32,000 nt of DNA from Bdellovibrionales bacterium (GTDB lineage: Bacteria; Bdellovibrionota; Bdellovibrionia; Bdellovibrionales; UBA1609): NCBI GenBank assembly GCA_963692945.1, contig OY843585.1, positions 30,001 to 62,000 of the forward strand, in the 5' to 3' direction. Below the pieces are notes generated by a model that had not been told where the DNA came from, made no database searches, and saw nothing but the letters and a program-made list of their open reading frames with translations. Positions within the stretch are counted from its first letter, which is position 1, and each line of letters begins with the position of its first letter. This document shows positions 2,957 through 20,091 of this stretch, in pieces. A program made the position numbers and the translations under genes.

Positions 2957-4150
2957 TTAAACAATCTCACCCATATTAAAGACAGGAAGATAAAGAGCAA
3001 GAATAATCATACCGATCATACCTCCTAAAAAGACAATTAACAAAGGTTCTATCATTTTTATTAGTCCTTCAACTAAACTCTCTACTTCTTGTTCATAATA
3101 TTCTGTTAGTTTTTTATAAGTGGAATCCAGTTTACCACTTTCCTCACCTATTCTTGTCATGTTAGTAATAAGAGCAGGAAAAGCTCTACTATGCTCTAAA
3201 CCTTTTGTAAACCCTTTACCTTGAGATACAAAGTTCTTAGCTACAGCAAGCCCTCTCATGACTTCATCGTGAGCTGCAATATTACGAGAAATACTTAAAG
3301 CTTCTAAAAAATTAACACCTGACTTTAAAAGAGCATAAAAAGAACGACAAAAACGAGCTAAAGCAGCATGGTATTGAAGTTTTCCAAAAACTGGCAAAAC
3401 TTTTATAAGAGAAATAAATTGGTTTCTTCCAGTTTCAGTTTTTATATATTGAACCACAGCTAAAGGCACTCCAATAAATACACCAGCCACAATATACCAA
3501 CTGGATCTCAACAAATTACTTAAATCTACAAAAGCTTGAGTTAGAGCTGGTAAATTTCCACCTGCACTGGAATAAAGAGATTCAAACTTTGGAACAATAA
3601 AAATAATAATTCCTAATATAACAGTTAAAGAGATTCCTAAAACAAGTATGGGATAAACCATTGCTGAACGAACTTTTTTCCTTGTATTTTCCATTTTCTC
3701 CATATAGTCCGCCAAATCTTTTAAAACCTGATCTAAACGACCTGTTTCTTCTGCACAAACAATCATATTCACGTAAAATCCATTAAAAATATTAGGCTTC
3801 CTCCTTAAAGCTTGCGAAAAACTTTTACCTCCTTCTACCATCTTTAAAATATCTCTTAAAACGAATTTGAGGCTGTAATTATCTGTCATATCAATACTGA
3901 TACTAAGAGCTTGAATAAGAGAAACACCTGAAGATAACAAAAAGGAAAGTTGCCTTGTAAAAAAAAGCATGTCTGACGAACTTAATTTTTTACCACCTGC
4001 AAAAAAAGGTATTAAAGGCTTCTGTGTCACATAAATAGGATCAATATTTCTAGATTTTAATTTGAGATTGGCTAGTTGAACAGACTTTGCCTTGATCTCT
4101 CCAGTAACAACTTTTCCTTGAATTTCTGTTTGATATATAAAAATAGCCAT
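2957..4150 (-). CDS. pilC: Type IV pilus assembly platform protein PilC (GspF family)
   Basis: 397 aa with two GspF-like repeats (FTRQLSFLLSSGVSLIQAL and FCRSFYALLKSGVNFLEAL) and TM segments. The C-terminus PLLIVFLGGMIGMIILALYLPVF is typical, and the gene is adjacent to pilT and pilB. Confidence 0.9.
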   Translation of the reverse strand: MAIFIYQTEIQGKVVTGEIKAKSVQLANLKLKSRNIDPIYVTQKPLIPFFAGGKKLSSSDMLFFTRQLSFLLSSGVSLIQALSISIDMTDNYSLKFVLRDILKMVEGGKSFSQALRRKPNIFNGFYVNMIVCAEETGRLDQVLKDLADYMEKMENTRKKVRSAMVYPILVLGISLTVILGIIIFIVPKFESLYSSAGGNLPALTQAFVDLSNLLRSSWYIVAGVFIGVPLAVVQYIKTETGRNQFISLIKVLPVFGKLQYHAALARFCRSFYALLKSGVNFLEALSISRNIAAHDEVMRGLAVAKNFVSQGKGFTKGLEHSRAFPALITNMTRIGEESGKLDSTYKKLTEYYEQEVESLVEGLIKMIEPLLIVFLGGMIGMIILALYLPVFNMGEIV

Positions 4151-4165
4151 AATCTTTCCCCTCTT

Positions 4166-5236
4166 TTAAGATGCTAAATTTCGTTTTTTCAATAGTTTAT
4201 AAAGTTCTTCTCGTTCTGAGGTGACATTAAAAGCTTCCTTAGCTGTAATCTCACCTTTCTGGACCAGTTGAACTAAACTGTTATTCATTGTTGTCATCCC
4301 CTGACTAAAACTAGTTTGCATCACACTATAAATCTGAAAAATTTTACCTTCTCGGATGAGGTTTCTAATAGCAGGACTGGCAATCATCACTTCAGTAACA
4401 ACTCTTCTCCCCCCATTAACAGATGGAACAAGTCTTTGAGAAATAATAGCTTGTAAAACTGTACTTAATTGATTTTGAACTATTTCTCTATCGTCTGGAT
4501 TAAATATACCAACAATTCTATCTATACTTTTAGGAGCTGTATTGGTGTGCAAACTTGAAAATACCAAATGACCTGTTTCAGCTAACTTTAATGTTGATTC
4601 AATAGTTTCTTGATCTCTCATCTCTCCCACAAGACAAACATCAGGATCAGACCTTAAAGCATTTCTCAATCCTTCTGAAAAATTTCTACAGTCCACACCA
4701 ATTTCTCTCTGATTGACGATACAATTTTTATGTTGATGAATGATTTCTATAGGGTCTTCAATAGTTAAAATATGAGCTCGACGCCTTTCATTAATGGCAT
4801 TGACAAGAGCTGCCAAGGTTGTACTCTTACCTGAACCTGTAGGACCTGTAACCAAAACCAATCCATTAGGGTAGTTAGTAAATTCTTCTACAGTAAGAGG
4901 AAGCCCTAATTTAGTTATATCAGGAGCCATACTATTTAATAGACGAAATACACCAGCTACAGAAGATTTTTGATAAAATAAAGTGCCTCTAAATCGAGCC
5001 AAATTCCTAACAAAAAAACTAAAATCTAAATTTTTTTCAGACTCAAATATAGATTTTTGTTCATCAGATATTAGAGAATAACATAAGTGTTGCACTTGTT
5101 CAGAAGTTAATGGCGGACTATTCACCTTAAAAATAGAACCATTCACTCTCAACATCGGAGGACTATTTGCTGTAAGATGCACATCTGAAGCCTCCTTATC
5201 CGCTGCTAATTTTAAAATTTGTACCATTGAAATCAT
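4166..5236 (-). CDS. pilT: Twitching-motility retraction ATPase PilT
   Basis: 356 aa. Motifs seen: ASDVHLTANSPPMLRVNG, Walker A GPTGSGKSTT, Asp box, His box SLHTN, and the PilT signature AIRNLIREGK. Confidence 0.92.
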   Translation of the reverse strand: MISMVQILKLAADKEASDVHLTANSPPMLRVNGSIFKVNSPPLTSEQVQHLCYSLISDEQKSIFESEKNLDFSFFVRNLARFRGTLFYQKSSVAGVFRLLNSMAPDITKLGLPLTVEEFTNYPNGLVLVTGPTGSGKSTTLAALVNAINERRRAHILTIEDPIEIIHQHKNCIVNQREIGVDCRNFSEGLRNALRSDPDVCLVGEMRDQETIESTLKLAETGHLVFSSLHTNTAPKSIDRIVGIFNPDDREIVQNQLSTVLQAIISQRLVPSVNGGRRVVTEVMIASPAIRNLIREGKIFQIYSVMQTSFSQGMTTMNNSLVQLVQKGEITAKEAFNVTSEREELYKLLKKRNLAS

Positions 5237-5244
5237 AATATTTA

Positions 5245-7002
5245 TTAGTTATCGAACATAGTAGATCGAATAACCTCCTCTATATTAACTAAACCTTCTT
5301 TTAATTTTGTAAGAGCACTATGTCTTAAAGTAATCATACCATCTTGAATGGCTATTTTTTTTAATTCCATAGGAGGCAGATCATCAAAAATAGCCTCTTT
5401 AATTTTTGGAGTGATTTTCATCATCTCATAAACAGCTATACGACCATTATAACCTAAATTATTACAAAAAGAACATCCACTTCCTTTATCATATACATTC
5501 TCTATAGTATAAAGAGATAAATCTTCTTTAGGGATACCTAGCTTTTCTAAATTTACTAAATCTTTTTCATGAATAGGTCTTTTACACTTATTACATAAGA
5601 GACGAAGTAATCTTTGAGAAATAATAATAGATGTATTATCTGCCACACTATACGAAGGAACTCCCATACTTAACAATCGTGTGACTGTAGAAGCTGTATC
5701 ATTTGTATGAAGAGTACTAAGGACTAAGTGACCTGTTGAAGAAGCTTTAAAAGCAATTTCTGCTGTTTCAATATCTCGAATCTCTCCAACTAAAATAATA
5801 TCAGGATCTTGTCTCAAAAAAGCTCTTAAAGCTACAGAGAAATCCAATCCAATTTTTTGATTCATTTGAACCTGATTAATACCATGTATACGAAACTCTA
5901 CAGGATCTTCTGCTGTAGAAATATTTCTATCGGGAGTGTTTAATTTCATCAATCCAGAGTAAATTGTAGTTGTTTTCCCTGAACCTGTAGGACCTGTCAT
6001 TAAAATCAAACCTTGAGGTTTTTGAAGAGCTTCTATAAACATCTTTAATTGAAAATTCTCCATACCCAATAAAGACATATCAACTTTTAAAGAAGAATCG
6101 TCTAGTATCCTCAAAACTATTTTTTCTCCATTAACTGTAGGAGTGGAATTAACACGCATATTTAATTCCTTACTATCTAAACGAATTTTTAAACGAGCAT
6201 CTTGAGGTTTCCTTTTTTCACTAATGTCCATATTACTCATAACTTTGATACGAGAAATAATAGCTGGTGCCATATCTTTAGGAAGCACATGCTTTTCATG
6301 TAATGCTCCATCCACACGATAACGAATGCGAAAAGAGTTTTCATAAACTTCCAAATGAATATCAGAAGATTTTAAACGAATGGCATCAGAAAATATAAGA
6401 TTCACAAAAGATATAACAGGATTAGATTGTTGTTTCTCTTCTTCTTTATCTAAGTTGACGGCTTTTTCATCTTCAAACCCAAAATTCTCTATGTCCATAT
6501 CATAGAATAAACTATCTAGTTTTTTCTGATTGTTATAACATTTACTAAGAACGTTTTTAATATCCGATTTACAAGCAACAACAGATTGAATTTTACAACC
6601 TGTTAACAAAGACAGGTTATCTATGATGTGTATGTTAGAAGGATCAGAAAATACCACTACTAAAGTTTTATCAATTTTAGTTAAAGGAACAAGAACATGT
6701 CTCTCGCAAATTCTACGAGGAATTAATTCTAGCAATTCTTTAGATATTTTATACTCTTCTAAATTCTCAATGGCTTCAATATTAAATTCTTTAGAAAAAA
6801 TTTGAACGATTTCTTTTTCATCAACATAGCCTTTTTCTAAAAGGGTATCTATCACTTCAGAATGATTAACATTACCTTTTCTATTTTTTAAATCTCCTAA
6901 AATGCTTTGCACTTTCGGATGAAATTTAGAAATATCAAATTTCTGTTTATTACGAACTATTAAATCATTATTAATCTTTTTTTTCTTAGCCTCTTGACCC
7001 AT
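5245..7002 (-). CDS. pilB: Type IV pilus assembly ATPase PilB (GspE family)
   Basis: 585 aa with an N-terminal GSPII-type domain, Walker A GPTGSGKTTT, TLHTND, and the tetracysteine motif CNKCKRP...GCSFCNNLGYNGR. Confidence 0.92.
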   Translation of the reverse strand: MGQEAKKKKINNDLIVRNKQKFDISKFHPKVQSILGDLKNRKGNVNHSEVIDTLLEKGYVDEKEIVQIFSKEFNIEAIENLEEYKISKELLELIPRRICERHVLVPLTKIDKTLVVVFSDPSNIHIIDNLSLLTGCKIQSVVACKSDIKNVLSKCYNNQKKLDSLFYDMDIENFGFEDEKAVNLDKEEEKQQSNPVISFVNLIFSDAIRLKSSDIHLEVYENSFRIRYRVDGALHEKHVLPKDMAPAIISRIKVMSNMDISEKRKPQDARLKIRLDSKELNMRVNSTPTVNGEKIVLRILDDSSLKVDMSLLGMENFQLKMFIEALQKPQGLILMTGPTGSGKTTTIYSGLMKLNTPDRNISTAEDPVEFRIHGINQVQMNQKIGLDFSVALRAFLRQDPDIILVGEIRDIETAEIAFKASSTGHLVLSTLHTNDTASTVTRLLSMGVPSYSVADNTSIIISQRLLRLLCNKCKRPIHEKDLVNLEKLGIPKEDLSLYTIENVYDKGSGCSFCNNLGYNGRIAVYEMMKITPKIKEAIFDDLPPMELKKIAIQDGMITLRHSALTKLKEGLVNIEEVIRSTMFDN

Positions 7003-11085: not shown

Positions 11086-11778
11086 TTACATCATGTTAAT
11101 ATCTCTAATTTTACCTTCTTCTAATTTCAAAATTGTAGAAAAAGCCTCAGCAAAAAAAGTATCATGACTTACAGCTATTAAAGTTAAAGCAAATTTCTCA
11201 TGAAGGTTAAACAATAAATCTCTTATAAACTTAGCGTTATCCCTATCTAAGTTCCCTACAGGCTCATCGGCTAAAAGAATCTCTGGCTCATTCATTAAAG
11301 CTCTAGCAATAGCAACCCTTTGCTGTTCACCTCCACTGAGTTCAGAAGGGTAATGTTTTTGTCTCTGACTCAAACCCAACGTATCCATTAAAAAGTGAGC
11401 TCTTTTTAAAGAAACTTTATGTGGGGTTTTGGCTAAATAACTGGGAACCATAATATTTTCTAAAGTAGTGAATTCATTCAAAAGATGATGAAATTGGAAT
11501 ACAAAGCCCAACCTACTCCTTCTTAAAAAAGCAAGTTGATCTTCTGAAAACTCCAATAAATCTCTCCCTCTATAAAGCATTTGTCCCGATGTTGCCTGAT
11601 CTAAGGTTCCCATAATATGCAACAAAGTGCTTTTCCCTGAACCAGAAGGGCCTGTAATACAAATGGCTTGACCTTTTTGAACTTGAAGATTCAAACCTTT
11701 TAAAATAGGCAGTGTGTGAGAGCCATGTTGGTAGTTTTTGACTATGTTTTTTAACTCGTAAATATTTTCTCTAGACAT
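11086..11778 (-). CDS. lolD: Lipoprotein-releasing ABC transporter ATP-binding protein LolD
   Basis: Walker A GPSGSGKST, Q-loop, ABC signature LSGGEQQRVAIARAL, Walker B ILLADEP, and H-loop SHD. The track ORF starts at a TTG (11814). I prefer the ATG at 11776-11778 (MSRENIYELKNIVKNY), which has AGGAAA 5-6 nt upstream. Confidence 0.85.
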   Translation of the reverse strand: MSRENIYELKNIVKNYQHGSHTLPILKGLNLQVQKGQAICITGPSGSGKSTLLHIMGTLDQATSGQMLYRGRDLLEFSEDQLAFLRRSRLGFVFQFHHLLNEFTTLENIMVPSYLAKTPHKVSLKRAHFLMDTLGLSQRQKHYPSELSGGEQQRVAIARALMNEPEILLADEPVGNLDRDNAKFIRDLLFNLHEKFALTLIAVSHDTFFAEAFSTILKLEEGKIRDINMM

Positions 11779-11881
11779 AACATTTCCTATATCTTGTTTT
11801 GCCAGTTTTTCCAATAAAATATTGAATTTAAATTCTAAAAAAGACAGAGACTGTTACTAGTATTCCATTTTGAAAAAATCA

Positions 11882-12568
11882 CTAACCTAATAAATCACAG
11901 CCTAAAAAATTTCTTTTAGTTTGGAGGCAAGATTCCAAAACGGAAAAACTACCACTTGCTGGGTCAATAACAACATCTTCTTGTTCAGTAACTGCTTCAA
12001 TAAGTTTCATTTGTAACGCTAAAGGTTTTTGATGAGTGTGTTCTTTTTTTGAAATTTTTTCAAACCAAACATCTGGTATATTATGAATAGTCCAAACCCC
12101 TCTTGCTCTCTTCGGTTTTTTTTGTAAAATCAGTAAGTATTCACATTGTCTTCTTGTTCTATAGCCCATTCCAAATTTACCTTTATCCCAAGTTATCATA
12201 TCCACAATCTCTAAATCGGTCTGTTTGAACCAAGAACCTACACCTTCACATAAATGAAATTTATCAATCCATAAAAAAAGATGACCTGAAGATTGTAAGA
12301 CTCTACTGATCTCCTCTAAAAAAAACCCTATCTCCTCTTCAGACATTTGTTGTAAAGCAGACCTTTTCATTCCTCGTTTTTTTCCCTCATTGCCATAACT
12401 CATTTTATCTAAAACTCCTCTATACTGAGGATCAAAAAAACAAGCTGAAACGAATTGATCTTCCAAACAAGAAAGAAAAGTCAAACCTTCCATTTGAATT
12501 CTTGTATTGTATTTTATATTTTCAAGATTGTACTCTGTAAAAGATAAATCTAATAAATGAGATTCCAT
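11882..12568 (-). CDS. Orphan beta-class (N6-adenine or N4-cytosine) DNA methyltransferase
   Basis: Motif IV-like FFDPQYRG comes first and the motif I region [36 protein letters not shown] comes last, which is the circular permutation of the N6_N4_Mtase family. No restriction endonuclease gene is adjacent. I prefer the ATG at 12566-12568 (SD AAGGA with a 7-nt spacer) over the track TTG at 12574. Confidence 0.7.
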
Positions 12569-12780
12569 TCTCAATCCTTTTTAGAAAGTTTTATAGACTC
12601 AGGCTAAGAGATATAAGAGTCTCTGTAAAATTTTTATCGTCAATTCACAAGACAAAAGACTCGTTTTCAAGAAATAAAAAATCCTACATGTTGGCATCTA
12701 CAAAGTCTGGAGTTGCTGAAAGCAAGGTGTTTTCTATTTTTTATCACCGAAAATGATTCAAGAAAAGAAATTTCACTGGA

Positions 12781-15099
12781 TTATGTAGCATCTTCTTCAA
12801 GATTTTCTATTCTTTTTATAAGAGAGTTTAGATTCTGGTTCAGCTGTTTATTGTCTTTTTTGAAAGATTGGTTTTCTTTCTTTAAAGAAGATAGTCCTCT
12901 TTCTAATTTTTTGTTTGCAGATATTAATTTTTTCTCTGTTTGAAGTTGAGTCTTTTTTAGTTTTGTCATTTCTTTTGTAATAAAAGCGATGGATTTTGTA
13001 AGAGTAATTACAGACTCCTTAATAGAGGTTAGAGATTTTACCGTAAAGATGTAAAACTCTTTAAAAGATTTTATAATAATAGGAATAAATCCTTGAATGT
13101 TTAAATTTAAAGTTTTCTCTTTATCTGAATTTTCCGACACCAATTCTGGATATTGTTTTTGAACCTCTTGAGCAATAAAACCAATCTGTTTTGTCTGAGC
13201 TCTATTCTTGTCTCTCCAAAAGAAAGTTTTAGGATTTAATTTCAAAATGGAACCAAGTTGTTTTTTTAAATTTTTAATCTTGGTTTTAAGTCGGCGATCA
13301 GATGCTGGACATCCAAATCTTCCATTGGCATCTGCTCGAATATTACAACTTCTAACAGATGACACAACTAAATCTCCATCAATAGCAATAGATTGTCTTT
13401 TTGATGGTTTCCCTATAATCAAATCCCCATCAATGGTGACCGATTTTGTTCCTGACATATTCCCTTTAATCAAACCACCAATATCCAATTTGTAACTTTC
13501 ACTCCCGCAACCGAAAGATTGACAACCAGATCGGTATCCAATAGCAATATTATAATTTCCTGTTGTGTTAGAAGAACTAGCACTATCTCCGATGAGATTA
13601 TTGTGAATTCCAACTGTGTTTTGATAACCTGCTTTAGGCCCCATGAAGTTATTGTGACCTCCAGTGGTGTTTCTATAACCAGATAGACGCCCGATGAAGT
13701 TATTAAAATTTCCTGTTGTGTTTTTATAACCAGAAAGATTCCCTATGAAATTATTATTGTGTCCAGCCGTGTTGGCAAAACCAGACTGATATCCAATGAA
13801 GTTGTTGTAAGCTCCATTTGTATTTCTATAACCAGCACTATTCCCTATGAAATTATTATTGCGTCCAGCCGTGTTGGCAAAACCAGACTGATATCCAATG
13901 AAGTTGTTGTAAGTTCCATTTGTATTTCTATAACCAGCACTATTCCCTATGAAATTATTATTGTGCCCAGCTGTATTGGCAAAACCGGACTGATATCCAA
14001 TGAAGTTGTTGTAAGTTCCATTTGTATTTCTATAACCAGCATTATCCCCTATAAAGTTATTACGACTTCCAGTTACATTGTGATAACCAGATCCATAACC
14101 GATGAAGTTGTTGTAATATCCACCTGTGTTTTTATAACCAGACTGATATCCAATGAAAGTGTTCTTGTATCCTGTTGTATTTGAACGACCTGCTTGATAA
14201 CCAAAAAAAGTATTTTCTGAACCTGTTGTTAATTTCCCAGCTTCAAAACCAAAAGCGGTGTGTTTATTTACATTTACATCTATTGTTCCTCCACAACCAA
14301 CTAAACTGAATTCACCAGTAGAAGCATCTGTCACTTTATAACATTCTGGATCTCCACTTCCTCCTCCATCAAGAGCTACAGAACCACAAACATCTCCTGC
14401 ATAAGTTAAAGGGGTTGTATCTGCAATTATTAAATCAACAATCTCCTTTTCTTTTTGTATTTTTACTGCGGCTGTTAGATTGCTTAATGCTTTATAGTCC
14501 GTTATCTTTGTTTGTATATTTGCAGGAAGACCAGACTTCCCATCTGCTTTATCAATAATCTCTCCATAAAAAAGAGAACAACATTGAGAGGCTTTCACTG
14601 GAACTTTAAAATCCCAATTTGAATCCAAAGTCCCTACCCCTTTTAAGTAAATGATTTTAGGTTTTTTATCTGCTGGCACTCCTGTTTGACAATCTAGCAA
14701 CTCTGAGTCTGTTATGGCTGTGCAATCTCTAGATGCAAATGTAAAACCTGAAGGCTTGTTACTTATGTTATCATTTAAAATTTGCAAACATTTTTTATTA
14801 TTATCCATATTCTTTGAATTGTCTTCATTCGCAAATCTATCTACAATAGATTGAATCTGCATCACTTTCCAAAGTTCACTATTGGACTCTCTTAATTTCT
14901 TTTGGGCCGTGGATTGATGAACAATAGATGTTCCCACTCCTAAAATAACTATAGTTCCTATTACTGATGCAATAACAACACTAACAATAGCAGAACCTTT
15001 TCTATTTAATAAGGGATTAAATTTTTTAAGAAAACTTTTTGTGAGATGGATTAGGAGTTTTCTTTCTAGATTTAATATTCTTTTCATAGATAATTTCAT
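12781..15099 (-). CDS. Membrane-anchored, phage-tail-fibre-like trimeric fibre protein with a C-terminal peptidase-S74 intramolecular chaperone domain
   Basis: 772 aa. Residues 1-35 form a basic leader ending in RKG. Residues 36-60 are a hydrophobic helix, SAIVSVVIASVIGTIVILGVGTSIV. Residues 100-270 contain 8 Cys. Residues 281-536 hold about 15 copies of the 17-aa repeat NNFIGxxxGxxNTxGxx. Residues 600-685 read SDRRLKTKIKNL...LNPKTFFWRD...QIGFIAQEVQKQYPELV, a peptidase S74 / endosialidase-chaperone signature. Residues 690-772 are a K/E/L/N heptad-rich coiled coil. SD AAGGA lies 5 nt before the ATG. Confidence 0.85.
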   Translation of the reverse strand: MKLSMKRILNLERKLLIHLTKSFLKKFNPLLNRKGSAIVSVVIASVIGTIVILGVGTSIVHQSTAQKKLRESNSELWKVMQIQSIVDRFANEDNSKNMDNNKKCLQILNDNISNKPSGFTFASRDCTAITDSELLDCQTGVPADKKPKIIYLKGVGTLDSNWDFKVPVKASQCCSLFYGEIIDKADGKSGLPANIQTKITDYKALSNLTAAVKIQKEKEIVDLIIADTTPLTYAGDVCGSVALDGGGSGDPECYKVTDASTGEFSLVGCGGTIDVNVNKHTAFGFEAGKLTTGSENTFFGYQAGRSNTTGYKNTFIGYQSGYKNTGGYYNNFIGYGSGYHNVTGSRNNFIGDNAGYRNTNGTYNNFIGYQSGFANTAGHNNNFIGNSAGYRNTNGTYNNFIGYQSGFANTAGRNNNFIGNSAGYRNTNGAYNNFIGYQSGFANTAGHNNNFIGNLSGYKNTTGNFNNFIGRLSGYRNTTGGHNNFMGPKAGYQNTVGIHNNLIGDSASSSNTTGNYNIAIGYRSGCQSFGCGSESYKLDIGGLIKGNMSGTKSVTIDGDLIIGKPSKRQSIAIDGDLVVSSVRSCNIRADANGRFGCPASDRRLKTKIKNLKKQLGSILKLNPKTFFWRDKNRAQTKQIGFIAQEVQKQYPELVSENSDKEKTLNLNIQGFIPIIIKSFKEFYIFTVKSLTSIKESVITLTKSIAFITKEMTKLKKTQLQTEKKLISANKKLERGLSSLKKENQSFKKDNKQLNQNLNSLIKRIENLEEDAT
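13030..13302 (-). other. Peptidase S74 (intramolecular chaperone auto-processing) domain of the fibre protein
   Basis: The S600-D601-R-R-L-K-T-K-I motif is followed by LNPKTFFWRD, IGFIAQEV and YPELV. This matches the conserved layout of endosialidase and tail-fibre C-terminal chaperone domains. Confidence 0.8.
13494..14259 (-). repeat. Coding array of about 15 tandem 51-bp (17-aa) units, consensus NNFIGYxSGYxNTxGxx
   Basis: Read directly from the translated protein, aa 281-536. The units begin TAFGFEAGKLTTGSE, NTFFGYQAGRSNTTGYK, NTFIGYQSGYKNTGGYY, NNFIGYGSGYHNVTGSR and continue to NIAIGYRSGCQSFGCGS. Confidence 0.9.
13761..14066 (-). repeat. Three tandem copies of a 102-bp (34-codon, two-unit) higher-order repeat
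   Basis: Copy 1 (13761-13862) and copy 2 (13863-13964) differ at 2 of 102 positions. Copy 3 (13965-14066) is roughly 88% identical to copy 2. The period is a multiple of 3. Confidence 0.9.
14920..14994 (-). other. Hydrophobic N-terminal anchor of the fibre protein, PilX_N/pseudopilin-like
   Basis: RKG|SAIVSVVIASVIGTIVILGVGTSIVHQSTAQKKL has a Gly before a ~25-residue hydrophobic helix followed by a polar Q-rich stretch. From memory this resembles PilX-type minor pilin N-termini (no Glu at +5). It could equally be a plain signal-anchor. Confidence 0.35.
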
Positions 15100-15296
15100 G
15101 TGTATCCTTAATTATAAATGCAAATTCTATAATATCAATAGGCCTAGAAAGACATTCTCATTTTGAGACATTTTATTTTAACAATATCTAACTTATTAGC
15201 TCTATAAAAAAAATCTCATTTTTAAGATTTTCCAAGAACTGATTCTCATTTCTATTTGTATGGAAACAAAAACATCTTCCTAACTTAAATTTTTTT

Positions 15297-17537
15297 TCAA
15301 AGAAAGGAATGGTAGAGACGAAATAAACTTGTTAATAAATGAGCCGATTGAATCTTATCCTCATTATCTAATAATTGTTTTAATGAAATCCAGTGTAATC
15401 TGTTGTTTTTCAATGGATTGACTTCCACAACAAAAGGGTAAACTATCTCTGGCGTAATTCCCATACTTACTCTGTAATCCGATCCTAAAGGAGATATATT
15501 GTTTATCTTTACTTTAAAATCTTTCTCTAACTGATGAGTTGAATATTCTCTAGCCAATGTCATTGTACTTTTATCTTTTGGAATACGATAAGCAGGTACG
15601 GTGGGAAGAATAGAATTCTTATTAAATATTTGAGGGATAGGAAGATCTCTTACCTCTAATCCTACATATATTTCCCCATTAGACTTAAAAACAGGAATAA
15701 AAGAAACAGTGTGATGCGAAACATGTTTAGGTAAAACATATTCTAATGGATAGGTATTAACAGTAAATCCTCTGCTATTGATTTCTAAAAATTCCCCTAC
15801 CTTAACGTCAGCATAATCTACTTTTTGTTTTGTAGATACCCATGACTGTTTTTTCTTCATTCCTTCAAAAGAAAAAACATTAGATAATTTAGGAAGAGGT
15901 ATTTCTTTTAAAGAAATAGTATCTCCTATCCACTCTTCAAATGAAAGATTGTTGTATTTAAGCAATCTGTATATATTGATCTCTAACCGTGAATCAAAAG
16001 CTCCTCCCACTTGAAAAGCTCTTAAAGCATGCCCTGCTTCTGTATAAGTAAGATGGCCTGATATATTATTGTATTTCTGTCCAATATTTACAAAATAAGG
16101 AGATATTTTTTCTGCAATAAGACCTTCAGATGAATAATAAGAATTTTCTACATGGATGTCATTTAGATCGATTTTTTTAATCAATTTATATTTTTCAACA
16201 ATTAGTTTTTTTAAAGAAGCTATTTCACTTTGATTTGTAGTGGTTACTAAAGGTTCATTAACATAACCTCCAGAGTAAACATCTCTTAAATGAGGCGTTT
16301 CTAGATTAGCATTTATAATTCCTCTAGGGTATCCTTTACGACTTACAATATAAAGCTTATTTTCATTTTTAAAATAAGGAATGACATCAATCACAGGAAA
16401 AGGACGTTCTATAATTTGTAAAACTTCTTTTGTATCTTTATTTTGCATATATTTTATTTTTAAATAACTAGAGTCTTTAGATAAACTTCTTTTTTCATAA
16501 ATTTTTACACCTTCATCCTCATTAACCTTTTCTCCTATAGTTAAAATTTTTGTAGGAGGATAAGGAATAGGATTTCCATTTGTATCTTGTAACTTTATTT
16601 TATCTTCAAATCGGTTTTTATATATCCATTCATTGTAAATAGGTCTTGAAACTAAAATTCTCATTTGATTCATCCTATAAATTTCTTCTATTTGATTTTG
16701 TGACATATAAAGATACTCTTCTTTTATTTCTGCTTTCCAGTTAGATAAATAATCTTTATGATGGAGAAATTCTACAATAGTGCGAAGATCTAATTCTATA
16801 GTACTCCATTTTTTATTTTTCTGAATTATTTTATAAGGTATGGAATCTTTATGAATGCTACTACGAAATTCTTTTGCAAAAAGTTTAAATATCTGAAAGG
16901 TAGATAACTCTGTAAGTTTTTGATTACCTTTACCATCATCATTTCTTAATTTTAATTGTGCCGTAAGAGAGCCTTTAGGAATTACAAAATCCCTTAGCAT
17001 AAAAATACCACCATTTTTTAATTGTTCTATTTGATTAAAAAAGGCTTTAATCCCTTCAAGTAAACTATAACCTTCACCAGAAAAACTTGTTACATGATGA
17101 ATAACTGAAGAATTAATAATAGCATCTAAAGAATTATCAGGAAATATTTTTTTAGAAATATCTCCCTGTTTATAACTTAAATTGTCCGCTTCATATTTGC
17201 TACTAGCATTTTCTACCATTTTTGGATCAATATCTACACCAATGACTTTAGTATGCGGATAGGAATGAGCTATAAAATGGGTGGCTTTCCCTGTTCCAGA
17301 ACCCATGTCTGCAACAACTCCTTCGTTTGGAAGATAAAAAGACATCATAGCCATTTTTTCTAAATCCATTCGTGGAGGCGACTTTAAATAATGCTTTAAA
17401 TTCCCTTTACTGATTGCATATTTTCTAGGTATTTTTGTTAAAAAACTATCTTTACAAAGTTGAGACGATAGAGATAGAAAAGGAAATAAAAGAAGAGCAA
17501 TTAAAAGGGTTTTCATAGAAATATAATGCATTATCAT
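15297..17537 (-). CDS. Signal-peptide-bearing class I SAM-dependent methyltransferase fused to a ~500-aa duplicated domain of unknown function (possibly degenerate Nudix folds)
   Basis: 746 aa. The N-terminus MKTLLIALLLFPFLSLSSQ looks like a Sec signal. The methyltransferase motifs are motif I VVADMGSGTGKATHF, motif II KVIGVDIDPKMVENA, DAIINSSVIHHV and NGGIFMLRDF. Residues ~380-540 and ~595-746 align to each other: VIDVIPYFKNENKLYIV with TVSFIPVFKSNGEIYVG, YYSSEGLIAEKISPYFV with YRVSMGITPEIVYPFVV, and DSRLEINIYRLL with SAHLLTSLFRLY. Confidence 0.7.
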   Translation of the reverse strand: MIMHYISMKTLLIALLLFPFLSLSSQLCKDSFLTKIPRKYAISKGNLKHYLKSPPRMDLEKMAMMSFYLPNEGVVADMGSGTGKATHFIAHSYPHTKVIGVDIDPKMVENASSKYEADNLSYKQGDISKKIFPDNSLDAIINSSVIHHVTSFSGEGYSLLEGIKAFFNQIEQLKNGGIFMLRDFVIPKGSLTAQLKLRNDDGKGNQKLTELSTFQIFKLFAKEFRSSIHKDSIPYKIIQKNKKWSTIELDLRTIVEFLHHKDYLSNWKAEIKEEYLYMSQNQIEEIYRMNQMRILVSRPIYNEWIYKNRFEDKIKLQDTNGNPIPYPPTKILTIGEKVNEDEGVKIYEKRSLSKDSSYLKIKYMQNKDTKEVLQIIERPFPVIDVIPYFKNENKLYIVSRKGYPRGIINANLETPHLRDVYSGGYVNEPLVTTTNQSEIASLKKLIVEKYKLIKKIDLNDIHVENSYYSSEGLIAEKISPYFVNIGQKYNNISGHLTYTEAGHALRAFQVGGAFDSRLEINIYRLLKYNNLSFEEWIGDTISLKEIPLPKLSNVFSFEGMKKKQSWVSTKQKVDYADVKVGEFLEINSRGFTVNTYPLEYVLPKHVSHHTVSFIPVFKSNGEIYVGLEVRDLPIPQIFNKNSILPTVPAYRIPKDKSTMTLAREYSTHQLEKDFKVKINNISPLGSDYRVSMGITPEIVYPFVVEVNPLKNNRLHWISLKQLLDNEDKIQSAHLLTSLFRLYHSFL

Positions 17538-17774
17538 CCTACAGTGTTTTTTTACAATTCAAATTAAAAAGAATAATTACAGATAAATATCTTAAAATTA
17601 AAAATATTTTTCATAAAAATTCCCTGATTTGCAGTTGAATTATAACATAGCAAGCCCATTGCAAATAAAGATATTTATAGATTGAATTTTTTACACTTTT
17701 ATATAGTAGTTGTTTAAAAAAAATACAATCTAATTTATTATTTAAAATGTCTCTTACTATTGATTCTTATTTTC

Positions 17775-18974
17775 TCAATTATAAGAAAGACCTTCTTTAA
17801 CATTTAATTTGTAAGCTCTTCTGGCTGGTGCAAAAGATGAAAAAAGAACAACAATTAAACTAGAAATAAATATAAAAAGAAAGTCTTGAACTTTCCATTG
17901 CAAAACAAATTTATTCACTTGATACACTTCTTCAGGAATAAAATTCCATTGATCCTGTAAAAAAATTAAACCATAACAGATAGCCCAACCCAGCAACAAA
18001 CCTAAACAAGTTCCTACAAAACCAAGAATAAAACCATTTAATAAAAAAAGATTTCTAATAAAAGATGGTTTCGCTCCCATAGATTTCAAAATACTTATAT
18101 CTTTTGTTTTCTTAAACACTTGAATAAATAAAGAACTCGAAACATTAAACCCTGCTGCAAAAATAAGTATCAACAAAACTAAAAATATAATTTTTCTATC
18201 CATATTTATAATTTCAAAAAATCTTCTATCTATATCCTTCCAAGAGTAAATAATATAACCTTTCCTTTTTAACTTTTCTTTCATTTCCTGAACCAATGTG
18301 TCTGCTTCACGACTATTTTTTAACCACAAACGAATCCCTGAAATTTTTTCATCTTGTTTTTCTAAAGATTGTAAAGAAGAAAGAGACATCAATACATAAC
18401 GAGAATTAAAGTCGTAACGACCAAAATCTCCTATAGCTCCCACCTTGAATAATTTTTGTTTTCTAGAAAAATAAGAACTTGTATCACCAGATAAAATCAT
18501 AGGCACAGAAGAGCCAACATCTATATCCAGTTCTTTAGCTAAAGATTTACCCACAATCAAAAAATCTTTAGAATTTTTAATGCTTCCTTCTAAAATCCTA
18601 TTTTGAAGAAATTGAGAATGTCTCCATTTATCATCTTCTACACCCTCAATAAACAAACCTTTAAACTGTTTGGAGTGTAAAATTAAACCTTCAGAAGACA
18701 AAAAAACCATTTTATCTTTTATCAAATGATTGTAAGGAGAAATATCATTTACAACTTGCTCTTGGGTTTTATCTTTCTCTAAAGACACAATGATATGACC
18801 ACTCATATCTACAATGGCCTTCTCTAAACCTAAAGAAAAACCATTGACAGCTAATAAAGCTGTGGTTAAAGAAGCCACTCCTAAAATCAAACTCAATAAA
18901 CTAAATAAAGTACTAAATTGAAAAATATTTCTAGGTGTTAATAAAATTCTTTTTAACCAAAGCCAATAAAACAT
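17775..18974 (-). CDS. Lipoprotein-releasing system permease, LolC/LolE (FtsX/MacB-type) family
   Basis: 399 aa. An N-terminal TM helix is followed by a large periplasmic domain and then three C-terminal TM helices of the FtsX type (ISILKSMGAKPSFIRNLFLLNGFILGF). Only one permease gene is present, so it may act as a homodimeric LolF-like partner of LolD. Confidence 0.85.
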   Translation of the reverse strand: MFYWLWLKRILLTPRNIFQFSTLFSLLSLILGVASLTTALLAVNGFSLGLEKAIVDMSGHIIVSLEKDKTQEQVVNDISPYNHLIKDKMVFLSSEGLILHSKQFKGLFIEGVEDDKWRHSQFLQNRILEGSIKNSKDFLIVGKSLAKELDIDVGSSVPMILSGDTSSYFSRKQKLFKVGAIGDFGRYDFNSRYVLMSLSSLQSLEKQDEKISGIRLWLKNSREADTLVQEMKEKLKRKGYIIYSWKDIDRRFFEIINMDRKIIFLVLLILIFAAGFNVSSSLFIQVFKKTKDISILKSMGAKPSFIRNLFLLNGFILGFVGTCLGLLLGWAICYGLIFLQDQWNFIPEEVYQVNKFVLQWKVQDFLFIFISSLIVVLFSSFAPARRAYKLNVKEGLSYN

Positions 18975-18977
18975 AAT

Positions 18978-20091
18978 TTACATCACCCTACTTTTTAAAT
19001 AAGATTCAATAAAAAAATCAATATCCCCATCTAAAACCTCTTTAGGGTTTGTATGCTCTATTTGAAATCTATGGTCTTTGACCATTTGATAAGGATGTAA
19101 AATATAAGAACGGATTTGACTCCCCCACTCATTCGCTTTTTTAGAAGATTCTCTTTCTACTCTTTCTTGTTCCTTTTTCTCCATTTCTTTTTTATGTAAA
19201 GCCGCTTTTAACATTTTCATAGCTTTATCTTTATTGGCATGCTGGCTTCTTTGGTTTTGACATTGCACAACTATTCCCGATGGCAAATGAGTGATACGAA
19301 CAGCAGAATCTGTTTTGTTCACATGCTGCCCTCCTGCTCCACCCGATCGGTAAGTATCTATTCTTAATTCCTCAGGGTTGACACTCACTTCTAATTGGTC
19401 ATCAATATCAGGCCAAGAAGAAACAGAAGCAAAACTTGTATGCCTTCGGGAATTGGAATCAAAAGGACTGATACGAACCAAACGATGAACACCGGATTCC
19501 CCTTGCAAATAACCATAGCTATAAGCTCCTTTGATTAAAAGAGTGACAGATTTAATTCCTGCCTCCTCCCCTTCAGTTAGAGATAAAACTTCCATCTGAT
19601 AGTTTCGCCTTTCAGCCCATCTAAGATACATACGATATAAAATATAAGCCCAATCCGCCGCTTCTGTTCCTCCAGAACCAGAATGAATAGATAAATAAGC
19701 ATTGTTCAAATCATTTTCTTTATTTAACAATCCTGCAATCTCTTGTTTTTGCACCTGAGAAGATAGTTTTTTTAAATCCTCTTTATATTGTAAAAAAGAT
19801 TTTTCATCTTTTTCTTCTCCTATAAGATCTAAAAGGACAACATGGTCATCAATGGATTCTTTAAGGGTCTTCCACTCTGTTATAATTTTTTCTAATTGAG
19901 TTTTTTCTTGATTAAGTTTTTGAAGTTTTTTGTGGTCTTGCCAAACTTCTGGCTTCTTCATCTCTTCATTTAGTTCTTTGAGTTTTGCTTTTTTACCCTC
20001 TACATCAAAGACACCTCCGCAAGTCATCCGCTCTATACTTCAACTTCTCTAAAAGATCTTTAACTTCCACTAATTCTGCTACTAAAGACAT
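18978..20091 (-). CDS. prfB: Peptide chain release factor 2, expressed through a programmed +1 frameshift: join(20008..20091, 18978..20006) on the minus strand
   Basis: The track ORF (18978..20027) lacks the true N-terminus. Frame 0 starts at the ATG at 20089-20091 (SD GGGAGGA upstream) and encodes MSLVAELVEVKDLLEKLKYRADDLRRCL before stopping at TGA (20005-20007). The sequence GGAGG TGT CTT TGA T matches the E. coli prfB shift site AGGGGG TAT CTT TGA C. The +1 frame continues DVEGKKAKL... and carries the SPF and GGQ motifs. Confidence 0.93.
20002..20019 (-). promoter_or_regulatory. prfB: prfB autoregulatory +1 frameshift site (internal SD-like GGAGG, 3-nt spacer, CUU UGA)
   Basis: The plus strand reads acatcaaagacacctccg, which reverse-complements to CGGAGGTGTCTTTGATGT on the minus strand. 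The in-frame TGA is at 20005-20007 and the slippery CTT at 20008-20010. Confidence 0.9.

Follow-up and report, generated by a model that had tools for sequence, protein, structure and literature searches.

The lol permease and lolD genes are normally adjacent and co-transcribed, which raises the question of how, in a Bdellovibrionales bacterium (assembly GCA_963692945.1), three other genes came to lie between lolC, encoding a LolC/E-type permease, and lolD. We analyzed a stretch of 32,000 nucleotides (nt) of contig OY843585.1 (positions 30,001–62,000; hereafter, the window), within which the interval under study spans 11779–17774. From lolC to lolD, the three genes encode a 746-amino-acid (aa) enzyme, a fibre protein of 772 aa and a DNA methylase of 228 aa. 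A first-pass annotation had described them as an accessory island inserted as a unit into a long housekeeping run, and much of that description held: the genes are co-oriented, they follow AT-rich spacers of 237, 197 and 212 nt (the last given earlier as about 210 nt), and, being foreign to the Lol pathway, they do split lolC/E from lolD. The quoted housekeeping gaps (prfB/lolC, 3 nt; lolD/bamA, 64 nt; pilB/pilT, 8 nt) checked out, as did the minus-strand run of 17 genes (murJ, ybeY, prfB, lolC, the three genes in question, lolD, bamA, skp, ribF, pilB, pilT, pilC, a histidine kinase gene and exbB, plus exbD, which is cut by the window edge). The supposed unity of the three genes, on the other hand, did not withstand comparison with related genomes.

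As relatives, we used L001, a Bdellovibrionales metagenome-assembled genome found by a genome scan with LolC; L009 (GCA_029782575.1) and L010 (an ENA assembly), reached via the two closest methylase homologues; and the more distant L011 and L012. The LolC genome scan yielded L001 as its only true relative, and a metagenome scan with a LolC alignment, whose N-terminal patterns were poor, found nothing. The gene order murJ-ybeY-prfB-lolC-methylase-lolD-bamA was the same in L001, L009 and L010; it continued to skp in L001 (LolC 66% and methylase 80% identical to the window), and in L009 and L010 collinearity with the window ran from holA as far as the histidine kinase gene, with no gene other than the methylase between lolC and lolD. 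The methylase was thus found between the two lol genes in all three relatives that show both of them, 128 nt (L001), 180 nt (L009) and 243 nt (L010) from lolC, whereas the fibre and 746-aa genes were absent from all three. The synteny of the prfB-lolC-lolD-bamA region, named earlier as a check on the proposed island, therefore identifies the methylase as part of the ancestral arrangement, and only the fibre and 746-aa genes as a lineage-specific presence/absence polymorphism.

When the 5.2-kb interval of the window was compared with the relatives' spacers, the only similarity lay in the last 62–68 nt before the methylase ATG. The spacer that follows lolC had no counterpart except for a few bases next to the lolC stop codon, and no remnants of the fibre or 746-aa gene were detected in the 128–243-nt spacers of the relatives. 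The lineage-specific insertion therefore extends from approximately 12636 to 17774 (about 5.1 kb) and carries two genes, not three. The short conserved block upstream of the methylase was 81–82% identical in L009 and L010, and was shared in part with L001. With regard to the relationships, identity over methylase, LolD, BamA and Skp amounted to 81% between the window and L010, 80% between L009 and L010, and 77% between the window and L009; it was 71–74% for L001 against these three, and 61–64% for L011 against all of them. On these values, L010 is nearest to the window, and L001 and L011 are outgroups. Since the nearest relative and the outgroups all lack both extra genes, one gain in the window lineage is the parsimonious interpretation.

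In L011 and L012, the order methylase-lolD-bamA-skp-ribF-pilBTC was kept, and what may be the same seam, directly upstream of the methylase, was occupied by at least 8 kb of ankyrin-repeat genes (L011, 1–8000, and L012); two of the L011 open reading frames (ORFs), 204–659 and 3222–3677, are identical and represent a duplication. As in LolCDE and LolDF operons, one LolC/E-type permease and LolD are co-oriented here, within a conserved envelope-biogenesis run (prfB-lolC...lolD-bamA-skp). Unlike in those operons, however, the lol genes were never adjacent in this clade, with the methylase always lying between them and the distance reaching 6 kb in the window.

Taken together, it is likely that the lolC-lolD junction in this low-GC, small-genome clade, labelled Bdellovibrionales, was filled in at least two separate steps and not by one island. 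In the first step, old and now fixed, a methylase of the Type II restriction-modification family would have landed between lolC and lolD, with its own conserved upstream region that would also drive lolD. Methylase and lolD would then be equipped with separate expression signals, which would make the DNA immediately preceding the methylase an insertion-tolerant site, where an insertion would not starve lolD of transcription. In the second step, recent and confined to the window lineage, about 5.1 kb with two unrelated genes would have entered this permissive spacer, most likely by intragenomic duplication or relocation, or by exchange among compositionally similar relatives. In terms of genome structure, nothing here would be out of the ordinary: the conserved operon seam would tolerate insertions, its orphan methylase would have been domesticated, and two genes would have been added in one lineage.

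The alternative that survives best, albeit an improbable one, places the fibre and 746-aa genes in the ancestor of the clade, with independent losses in the lineages of L010, L009 and L001. Such a history would fit the fully native composition of both genes, the lack of visible insertion scars, and the occurrence of homologues of the 746-aa protein in related small genomes, which makes that gene part of the pool of the clade. Nevertheless, it would require two or three independent clean deletions instead of one gain, each without gene remnants in the short spacers of the relatives, and two of the homologues in question (in loci L003 and L004) reside in different contexts.

With regard to the first step, the methylase was identified as a solitary beta-class N6/N4 DNA methyltransferase of the Type II restriction-modification family, and its match to the PADLOC model PDLC03271 (MTase_II; 1.3e-85) was full length (aa 21–227 against profile positions 12–219 of 228). 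The family, with 4241 matches, maintains approximately 60% identity across phyla and has invariant motifs, i.e., DPQY (in place of DPPY), HTHQKP and DPxxGSxSV (DPASGSFSV in the window). As controls, we employed 80 unrelated metagenome loci (L014–L093; labels such as Anaerolineae, Bacteroidota, Poribacteria and Mycoplasmataceae) from a scan with the methylase alignment of the clade, in which family members were at most 63% identical. In about 35 of these 80 loci, a 225-aa Type II restriction enzyme (PDLC03487, 2.3e-54) is encoded directly downstream of the methylase, a position taken by lolD in the clade of the window; no lol genes were near the methylase in any of the 80. For its part, the cognate restriction enzyme had no tblastn match in the window, in L001 or in L009–L013. 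The family context thus places the origin of the methylase in mobile restriction-modification systems, in which respect its earlier description as an accessory gene was apt, yet as judged from synteny it is an old, fixed and solitary copy, not a recent arrival.

Its sequence conservation is in line with this. Identity to the orthologues in L001, L009 and L010 was 80–87% for the methylase, 82–92% for LolD, 66–79% for LolC and 69–75% for BamA, so that on this measure the methylase is about as conserved as LolD and better conserved than LolC or BamA; in L011 and L012, it is still about 66–70% identical. With a degree of conservation close to that of lolD, it probably serves the cell as an orphan DNA methylase of the housekeeping type. 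Its PF01555 N6/N4 fold, the lack of an adjacent restriction enzyme, the clade-wide conservation and the housekeeping neighbours liken it to the orphan methyltransferases Dam and CcrM, taken here as functional analogues. It nonetheless falls outside both families, with NCBIfam scores far below the cut-offs, and its motif IV is DPQY rather than DPPY. The methylase start was refined to the ATG at 12568, in line with its orthologues, which gives the third spacer its total of 212 nt (GC 0.32); similarly, the lolD start at 11778 agrees with the orthologue start MSRENI. The conserved block immediately upstream of the methylase, which had no Rfam match, is probably the promoter or the 5′ untranslated region of a methylase-lolD unit.

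We also scanned the sequence for mobile-element hallmarks, whose absence had already been pointed out in the first-pass annotation. The window contained no tRNA (tRNA scan) and no Rfam family (Rfam scan), domain-profile searches found no integrase, recombinase or transposase domain in the three interval proteins, and a repeat search revealed no significant flanking direct or inverted repeats, the matches at the borders being short and at chance level. No further credible ORF was present in 11779–17774 beyond the three genes. A deviating composition of the 11.8–17.8 kb region relative to its flanks, which had been suggested as a further check, was not observed: GC, GC3, codon-usage distance and tetranucleotide correlation of the insert were within the range of neighbouring genes, and the fibre gene deviated no more than its repeats account for. 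Because its composition is native, the insert bears no sign of recent foreign origin. Separate promoters for each gene, as had been proposed from the long spacers, were likewise not established. Promoter-like sites numbered 43, compared to 36.5 ± 5.8 in shuffled sequences, and the only strong sigma-70-like match, TTGATA-16-TATAAT (15138–15111), close to the fibre ATG on its upstream side, is no more than a match to the consensus; no terminator-like site or hairpin was predicted in any of the three spacers. An 18-codon ORF (MKNIFNFKIFICNYSFLI) is present in the first spacer, just upstream of the 746-aa gene (17558–17614, minus strand). The features of the locus are compiled in Table 1.

Table 1. 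Coordinates of the genes, spacers and protein segments discussed in the text (window numbering unless a locus is named).
Feature	Coordinates	Strand	Remarks
lolC/E-type lipoprotein-release permease	17775..18974	-	TIGR02212 lolCE 3e-69; Pfam MacB_PCD + FtsX; upstream border of the variable seam
Spacer 1	17538..17774	-	237 nt, GC 0.19; left end of the lineage-specific insertion
746-aa protein	15297..17537	-	leader + class I S-adenosylmethionine (SAM) methyltransferase + ~400-aa C-terminal module
Leader of the 746-aa protein	17442..17537	-	MKTLLIALLLFPFLSLSS-QL-CKDSF; hydrophobic core aa 10-24, motif C28-F32
C-terminal module of the 746-aa protein	15300..16520	-	predicted tandem (double) Nudix fold, no Nudix box
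Spacer 2	15100..15296	-	197 nt, GC 0.23; holds the best sigma-70-like match of the region
772-aa fibre protein	12781..15099	-	transmembrane segment, 17-residue repeats, S74 chaperone, C-terminal coiled coil
Fibre repeat array	13639..14157	-	102-nt units, 4.4 copies, 86-91% matches, 51-nt period
S74 chaperone/protease core	13138..13302	-	catalytic-type motif SDRRLK (Ser600, Lys605)
Spacer 3, distal part	12636..12780	-	right end of the insertion; without counterpart in relatives
Conserved ~65-nt block	12569..12635	-	directly upstream of the methylase ATG
DNA methylase, 228 aa	11882..12568	-	PF01555 1.3e-16
lolD ATPase	11086..11778	-	TIGR02211 1.7e-77; 76-92% identical to orthologues; downstream border
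Leader-motif positions	window 17442-17537; L003 2950, 7292, minus-strand 163-aa ORF; L004 1250, 3463, 5651, 10001; L011 1544, 3756, 5212		

Of the two genes gained in the second step, the one closer to the methylase encodes the fibre. Its earlier designation as phage-type was borne out by a Peptidase_S74 domain (PF13884; 2.6e-15, aa 600–654), by matches to PHROG tail spike and tail fibre families, and by 30–37% identity to annotated phage tail proteins over aa 280–682. Towards the N-terminus, a hydrophobic, putative transmembrane segment (about aa 35–55) is followed by approximately 230 aa without a family match and then by twelve phased 17-residue repeats of the type N-x-F-[IFM]-G (aa 296–483). 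At the DNA level, these repeats are encoded in part by the 102-nt tandem repeat (13694–14141), which is a sign of recent internal repeat expansion. An antisense ORF on the plus strand (13759–14184) is a by-product of the fibre repeats. A PDB sequence search with the fibre gave no match. The protein resembles phage tail fibres and tailspikes with an intramolecular chaperone (endosialidase K1F type, PF13884) in its S74 domain, its Ser-Lys motif and its repeat-rich region, whereas its N-terminal 280 aa are not phage-like and phage neighbours are lacking. A prophage remnant was ruled out, since the insert matched none of 50,697 phage records at the DNA level and no other phage gene was found nearby.

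The 2523 homologues of the fibre were mostly bacterial proteins annotated as ‘tail fiber domain-containing’, and at least two paralogues, P0012 and P0083, are encoded on the same 1.56-Mb contig. Because the identity to P0083 is 51% in the C-terminal stretch, from the repeats through the chaperone, versus about 30% in the N-terminal half, the family is mosaic, and, because of these paralogues in the same genome, intragenomic duplication or relocation is the likeliest origin of the fibre gene. The N-terminus of P0083 is prepilin-like (SG/FSLIGVL), with an N_methyl (PF07963) score of 18.0 bits versus a cut-off of 21.2 and without E+5; P0053, a distant, unrelated fibre homologue, reached 26 bits, above that cut-off. 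From these N-termini, a pilin-type anchor of the window fibre is possible. The genes pilB, pilT and pilC are present in the window (2957–7002), 6 kb downstream, but relatives keep the pil genes without the fibre gene, so that no link between them is indicated.

A possible functional model is offered by the mosaic adhesive trimer (MAT) fibres of Bdellovibrio bacteriovorus, among which 13 terminate in an S74 domain bearing SDxxxK (Caulton et al. 2024, PMC10769870). Both are long, repeat-built fibres that end in an S74 chaperone/protease with SDxxxK (SDRRLK in the window), both are represented by several paralogues in a genome, mosaic in that the C-terminal chaperone is conserved while the middle varies, and both show phage tail-fibre homology; moreover, the closest named relative genome of the window is labelled Bdellovibrionales. 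What is specific to MATs is a conserved beta-rich N-terminal domain (about 130 aa) that follows the signal peptide (PMC10769870), whereas the window fibre begins with a long leader and a pilin-like hydrophobic segment. The organism also differs in being small-genome, with a 1.56-Mb contig, and in having ankyrin-rich more distant relatives, so that the fibre may target a eukaryotic host instead of bacterial prey. From its phased repeats and its PHROG matches, we infer that the fibre forms trimers. It would accordingly be a trimeric, phage-tail-fibre-like adhesin anchored by its N-terminal membrane segment, which the S74 chaperone would fold and trimerise, with probable self-cleavage at Ser600, and it would work like the MAT fibres, as one of a mosaic paralogue family in this genome. 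The presence of MAT-like S74 fibres, some with pilin-like N-termini, as paralogue families in a small-genome relative would widen the range of organisms in which such adhesins can be studied.

The other gained gene encodes the 746-aa protein, for which the earlier description as a leader-bearing methyltransferase fusion proved correct. A Rossmann-type SAM-binding domain (Pfam Methyltransf_25/11/31 at 1e-14) covers approximately aa 60–340, and the full-length model, with a predicted local distance difference test (pLDDT) score of 72, gave a fold search dominated by generic small-molecule and RNA methyltransferases. The C-terminal 400 aa matched no Pfam family, and neither PF00293 nor PF03559 was found in the protein. 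An AlphaFold2 model of this module, built from a 58-sequence alignment (pLDDT 96; predicted template modelling score, 0.94), is read as a double Nudix fold without the Nudix box (GX5EX7REUXEEXGU), for which neither a strict nor a relaxed regular expression matched. Its best PDB match was the EvaA 2,3-dehydratase (4j7h; E 8.7e-12, TM-score 0.55), followed by ADP-ribose pyrophosphatases, which aligned over approximately 180–200 columns, about half of the module (target TM-score about 0.7). Like the EvaA-type nucleoside-diphosphate (NDP)-hexose 2,3-dehydratases, the module is predicted to consist of two tandem Nudix-like domains. It differs from both enzyme types in its low identity (12–17%), in the missing PF03559/PF00293 and Nudix box signatures, and in being fused to a methyltransferase and a leader, with no sugar-biosynthesis neighbours seen.

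A search with the module retrieved 331 cluster representatives at E ≤ 1e-3, fused to a methyltransferase in most cases and standalone (about 430 aa) in some. In P0251, P0260 and P0273, the module also occurs with an APH-type kinase plus methyltransferase, with NUDIX plus methyltransferase, and with a zeta-toxin-type kinase. With kinases and NUDIX as fusion partners, the chemistry of the family would seem to be nucleotide-linked. Judging only by fold and fusion partners, the double-Nudix module probably binds an NDP-linked ligand, and the methyltransferase would act on that ligand or on a partner. These roughly 330 clusters of methyltransferase plus box-less double-Nudix proteins represent a confidently folded (as predicted) but uncharacterised family. 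A word search returned five full-length homologues of the 746-aa protein, in unrelated contexts; homologues at 51–55% identity were found in ankyrin-rich genomes of 1.15–1.19 Mb, and relocation within the gene pool of the clade is the likeliest origin of the gene.

The leader of the 746-aa protein, with a hydropathy peak of 2.6 at aa 10–23 and small residues preceding its motif, was confined to the window protein and the two homologues closest to it (P0002 and P0003), whereas three more distant homologues begin at the enzyme. The leaders end in ...SLSS-QL-CKDSF (window), ...AYG-IKKS-CKKAF (P0002) and ...SEA-SNSK-CKKVF (P0003), and share an architecture in which a hydrophobic segment and a likely AXA-type site are followed, 2–6 residues on, by C-[KERS]-x-[AS]-F. 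Among the 112 ORFs of 70 aa or more in the window, L003, L004 and L011, a regular expression for this architecture matched 11, and it matched none in 16 other loci, including L001, L008, L009 and L010. Apart from the 746-aa enzyme, the architecture is found in L003 on a trypsin-like protease and a protein of 163 aa, in L004 on three ORFs for M3 peptidases, and in L011 on three ankyrin proteins encoded upstream of the methylase. Position −1 is frequently taken by P, K, L or D, for which reason the leader cysteine was not accepted as part of a lipobox.

The likeliest reading is that the leader consists of a signal peptide and, after it, a sorting motif that is specific to the lineage and carried by effector-like proteins; the 746-aa enzyme would have gained this export-type leader within the clade and would be exported, acting on the host or prey side. 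A bolder combination of claims is unlikely as a whole, namely that the leader is a lineage-specific sorting tag on an exported effector-like repertoire (ankyrin-repeat proteins, trypsin-like and M3 peptidases, and the 746-aa enzyme) of a reduced-genome, host-associated, Bdellovibrionales-related branch, that the lolC-methylase seam is a recurrent landing site, and that the 746-aa protein is a secreted enzyme methylating an NDP-linked host molecule. As to a host, the source contigs of L003, L004, L009 and L010 measure 1.15–1.56 Mb, and the contig numbering of one assembly (JARPSI010201392) would fit an assembly of very large size, perhaps that of a eukaryotic host. In combination with ankyrin and SET-domain neighbours, the small genomes and this numbering hint at host-associated, reduced-genome organisms; a literature search on these assemblies and on ankyrin-rich Bdellovibrionota symbionts found nothing relevant. 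A shared N-terminal motif on unrelated effector-like proteins could serve as a handle for predicting the secretome, and it is this motif, along with the uncharacterised enzyme family, that most deserves follow-up.

Since the fibre and 746-aa genes are neighbours in the same orientation, with an N-terminal hydrophobic segment in each product, they could also form a two-gene cassette of adhesin plus modifier, in which the enzyme would modify the fibre or a glycan that it carries or binds, for example by making or methylating an NDP-sugar. An EvaA-like fold and methyltransferase domains are both typical of deoxysugar tailoring in deoxythymidine diphosphate (dTDP)-sugar pathways, which suits this idea. 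We regard it as quite improbable, however, since NDP-sugar chemistry is cytoplasmic, whereas the 746-aa protein has an export-type leader, and since the two genes do not keep company in the loci surveyed. The loci examined for co-occurrence were L003–L007 and the P0006 gene list, which represent the five 746-aa homologues; L008, with the closest fibre homologue; and the 80 methylase-family loci. Near the five 746-aa homologues, no S74 fibre, PF01555 methylase or lol genes were found, and the fibre homologue of L008 stands alone, with no enzyme of the 746-aa type nearby. There is no evidence that the fibre and the 746-aa protein work together.

The same survey bears on the original proposal of one island inserted as a unit, whose three products would cooperate as a surface or host-interaction module. 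The genes are indeed contiguous and co-oriented, each behind a long AT-rich spacer, and the methylase does belong to a family of mobile restriction-modification origin. This proposal is nevertheless very improbable: in all relatives examined the methylase occupies exactly this position while the fibre and 746-aa genes are missing, and the co-occurrence of the three families elsewhere, which had been named as a check, was not observed, as they were never neighbours in the loci surveyed. What stood of the island was the lineage-specific character of the fibre and 746-aa genes. Least credible of all is a restriction-modification or methylation-associated defence system comprising both methyltransferases, for, although the methylase matches the Type II MTase model and the 746-aa methyltransferase domain gives a weak PADLOC mad2 match (1.7e-13, aa 60–181), the latter covers the generic SAM-binding domain only, the fibre has no PADLOC match, and no restriction enzyme or other defence component was found in the window or the clade loci.

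Several points weigh against the two-step account and the functions attached to it. The mechanism of insertion is not visible, with no integrase, tRNA, repeats or compositional scar. As promoter-like sites were not enriched and terminators were not predicted, the transcription-unit model is tentative, as is read-through from lolC. The related genomes examined numbered only four to five, and the 8 kb that precede the methylase in L011 did not include lolC, so that the notion of one seam with varying cargo is incomplete for that genome. With regard to the proteins, the N-terminus of the window fibre has no N_methyl (PF07963) match; the many lysines after the leader of the 746-aa protein also allow a signal-anchor rather than a cleaved signal peptide; and the EvaA fold match is moderate (TM-score 0.55, 12% identity).

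Upstream of lolC, prfB displayed a canonical programmed +1 frameshift (20005–20091, minus strand), which corresponds to the known autoregulation of RF2. Its ORF1 begins with the ATG at 20091 and ends in CTT TGA (20010–20005), preceded by an AGGAGG-like element, and the true gap between ybeY and prfB is therefore 2 nt, not 66.

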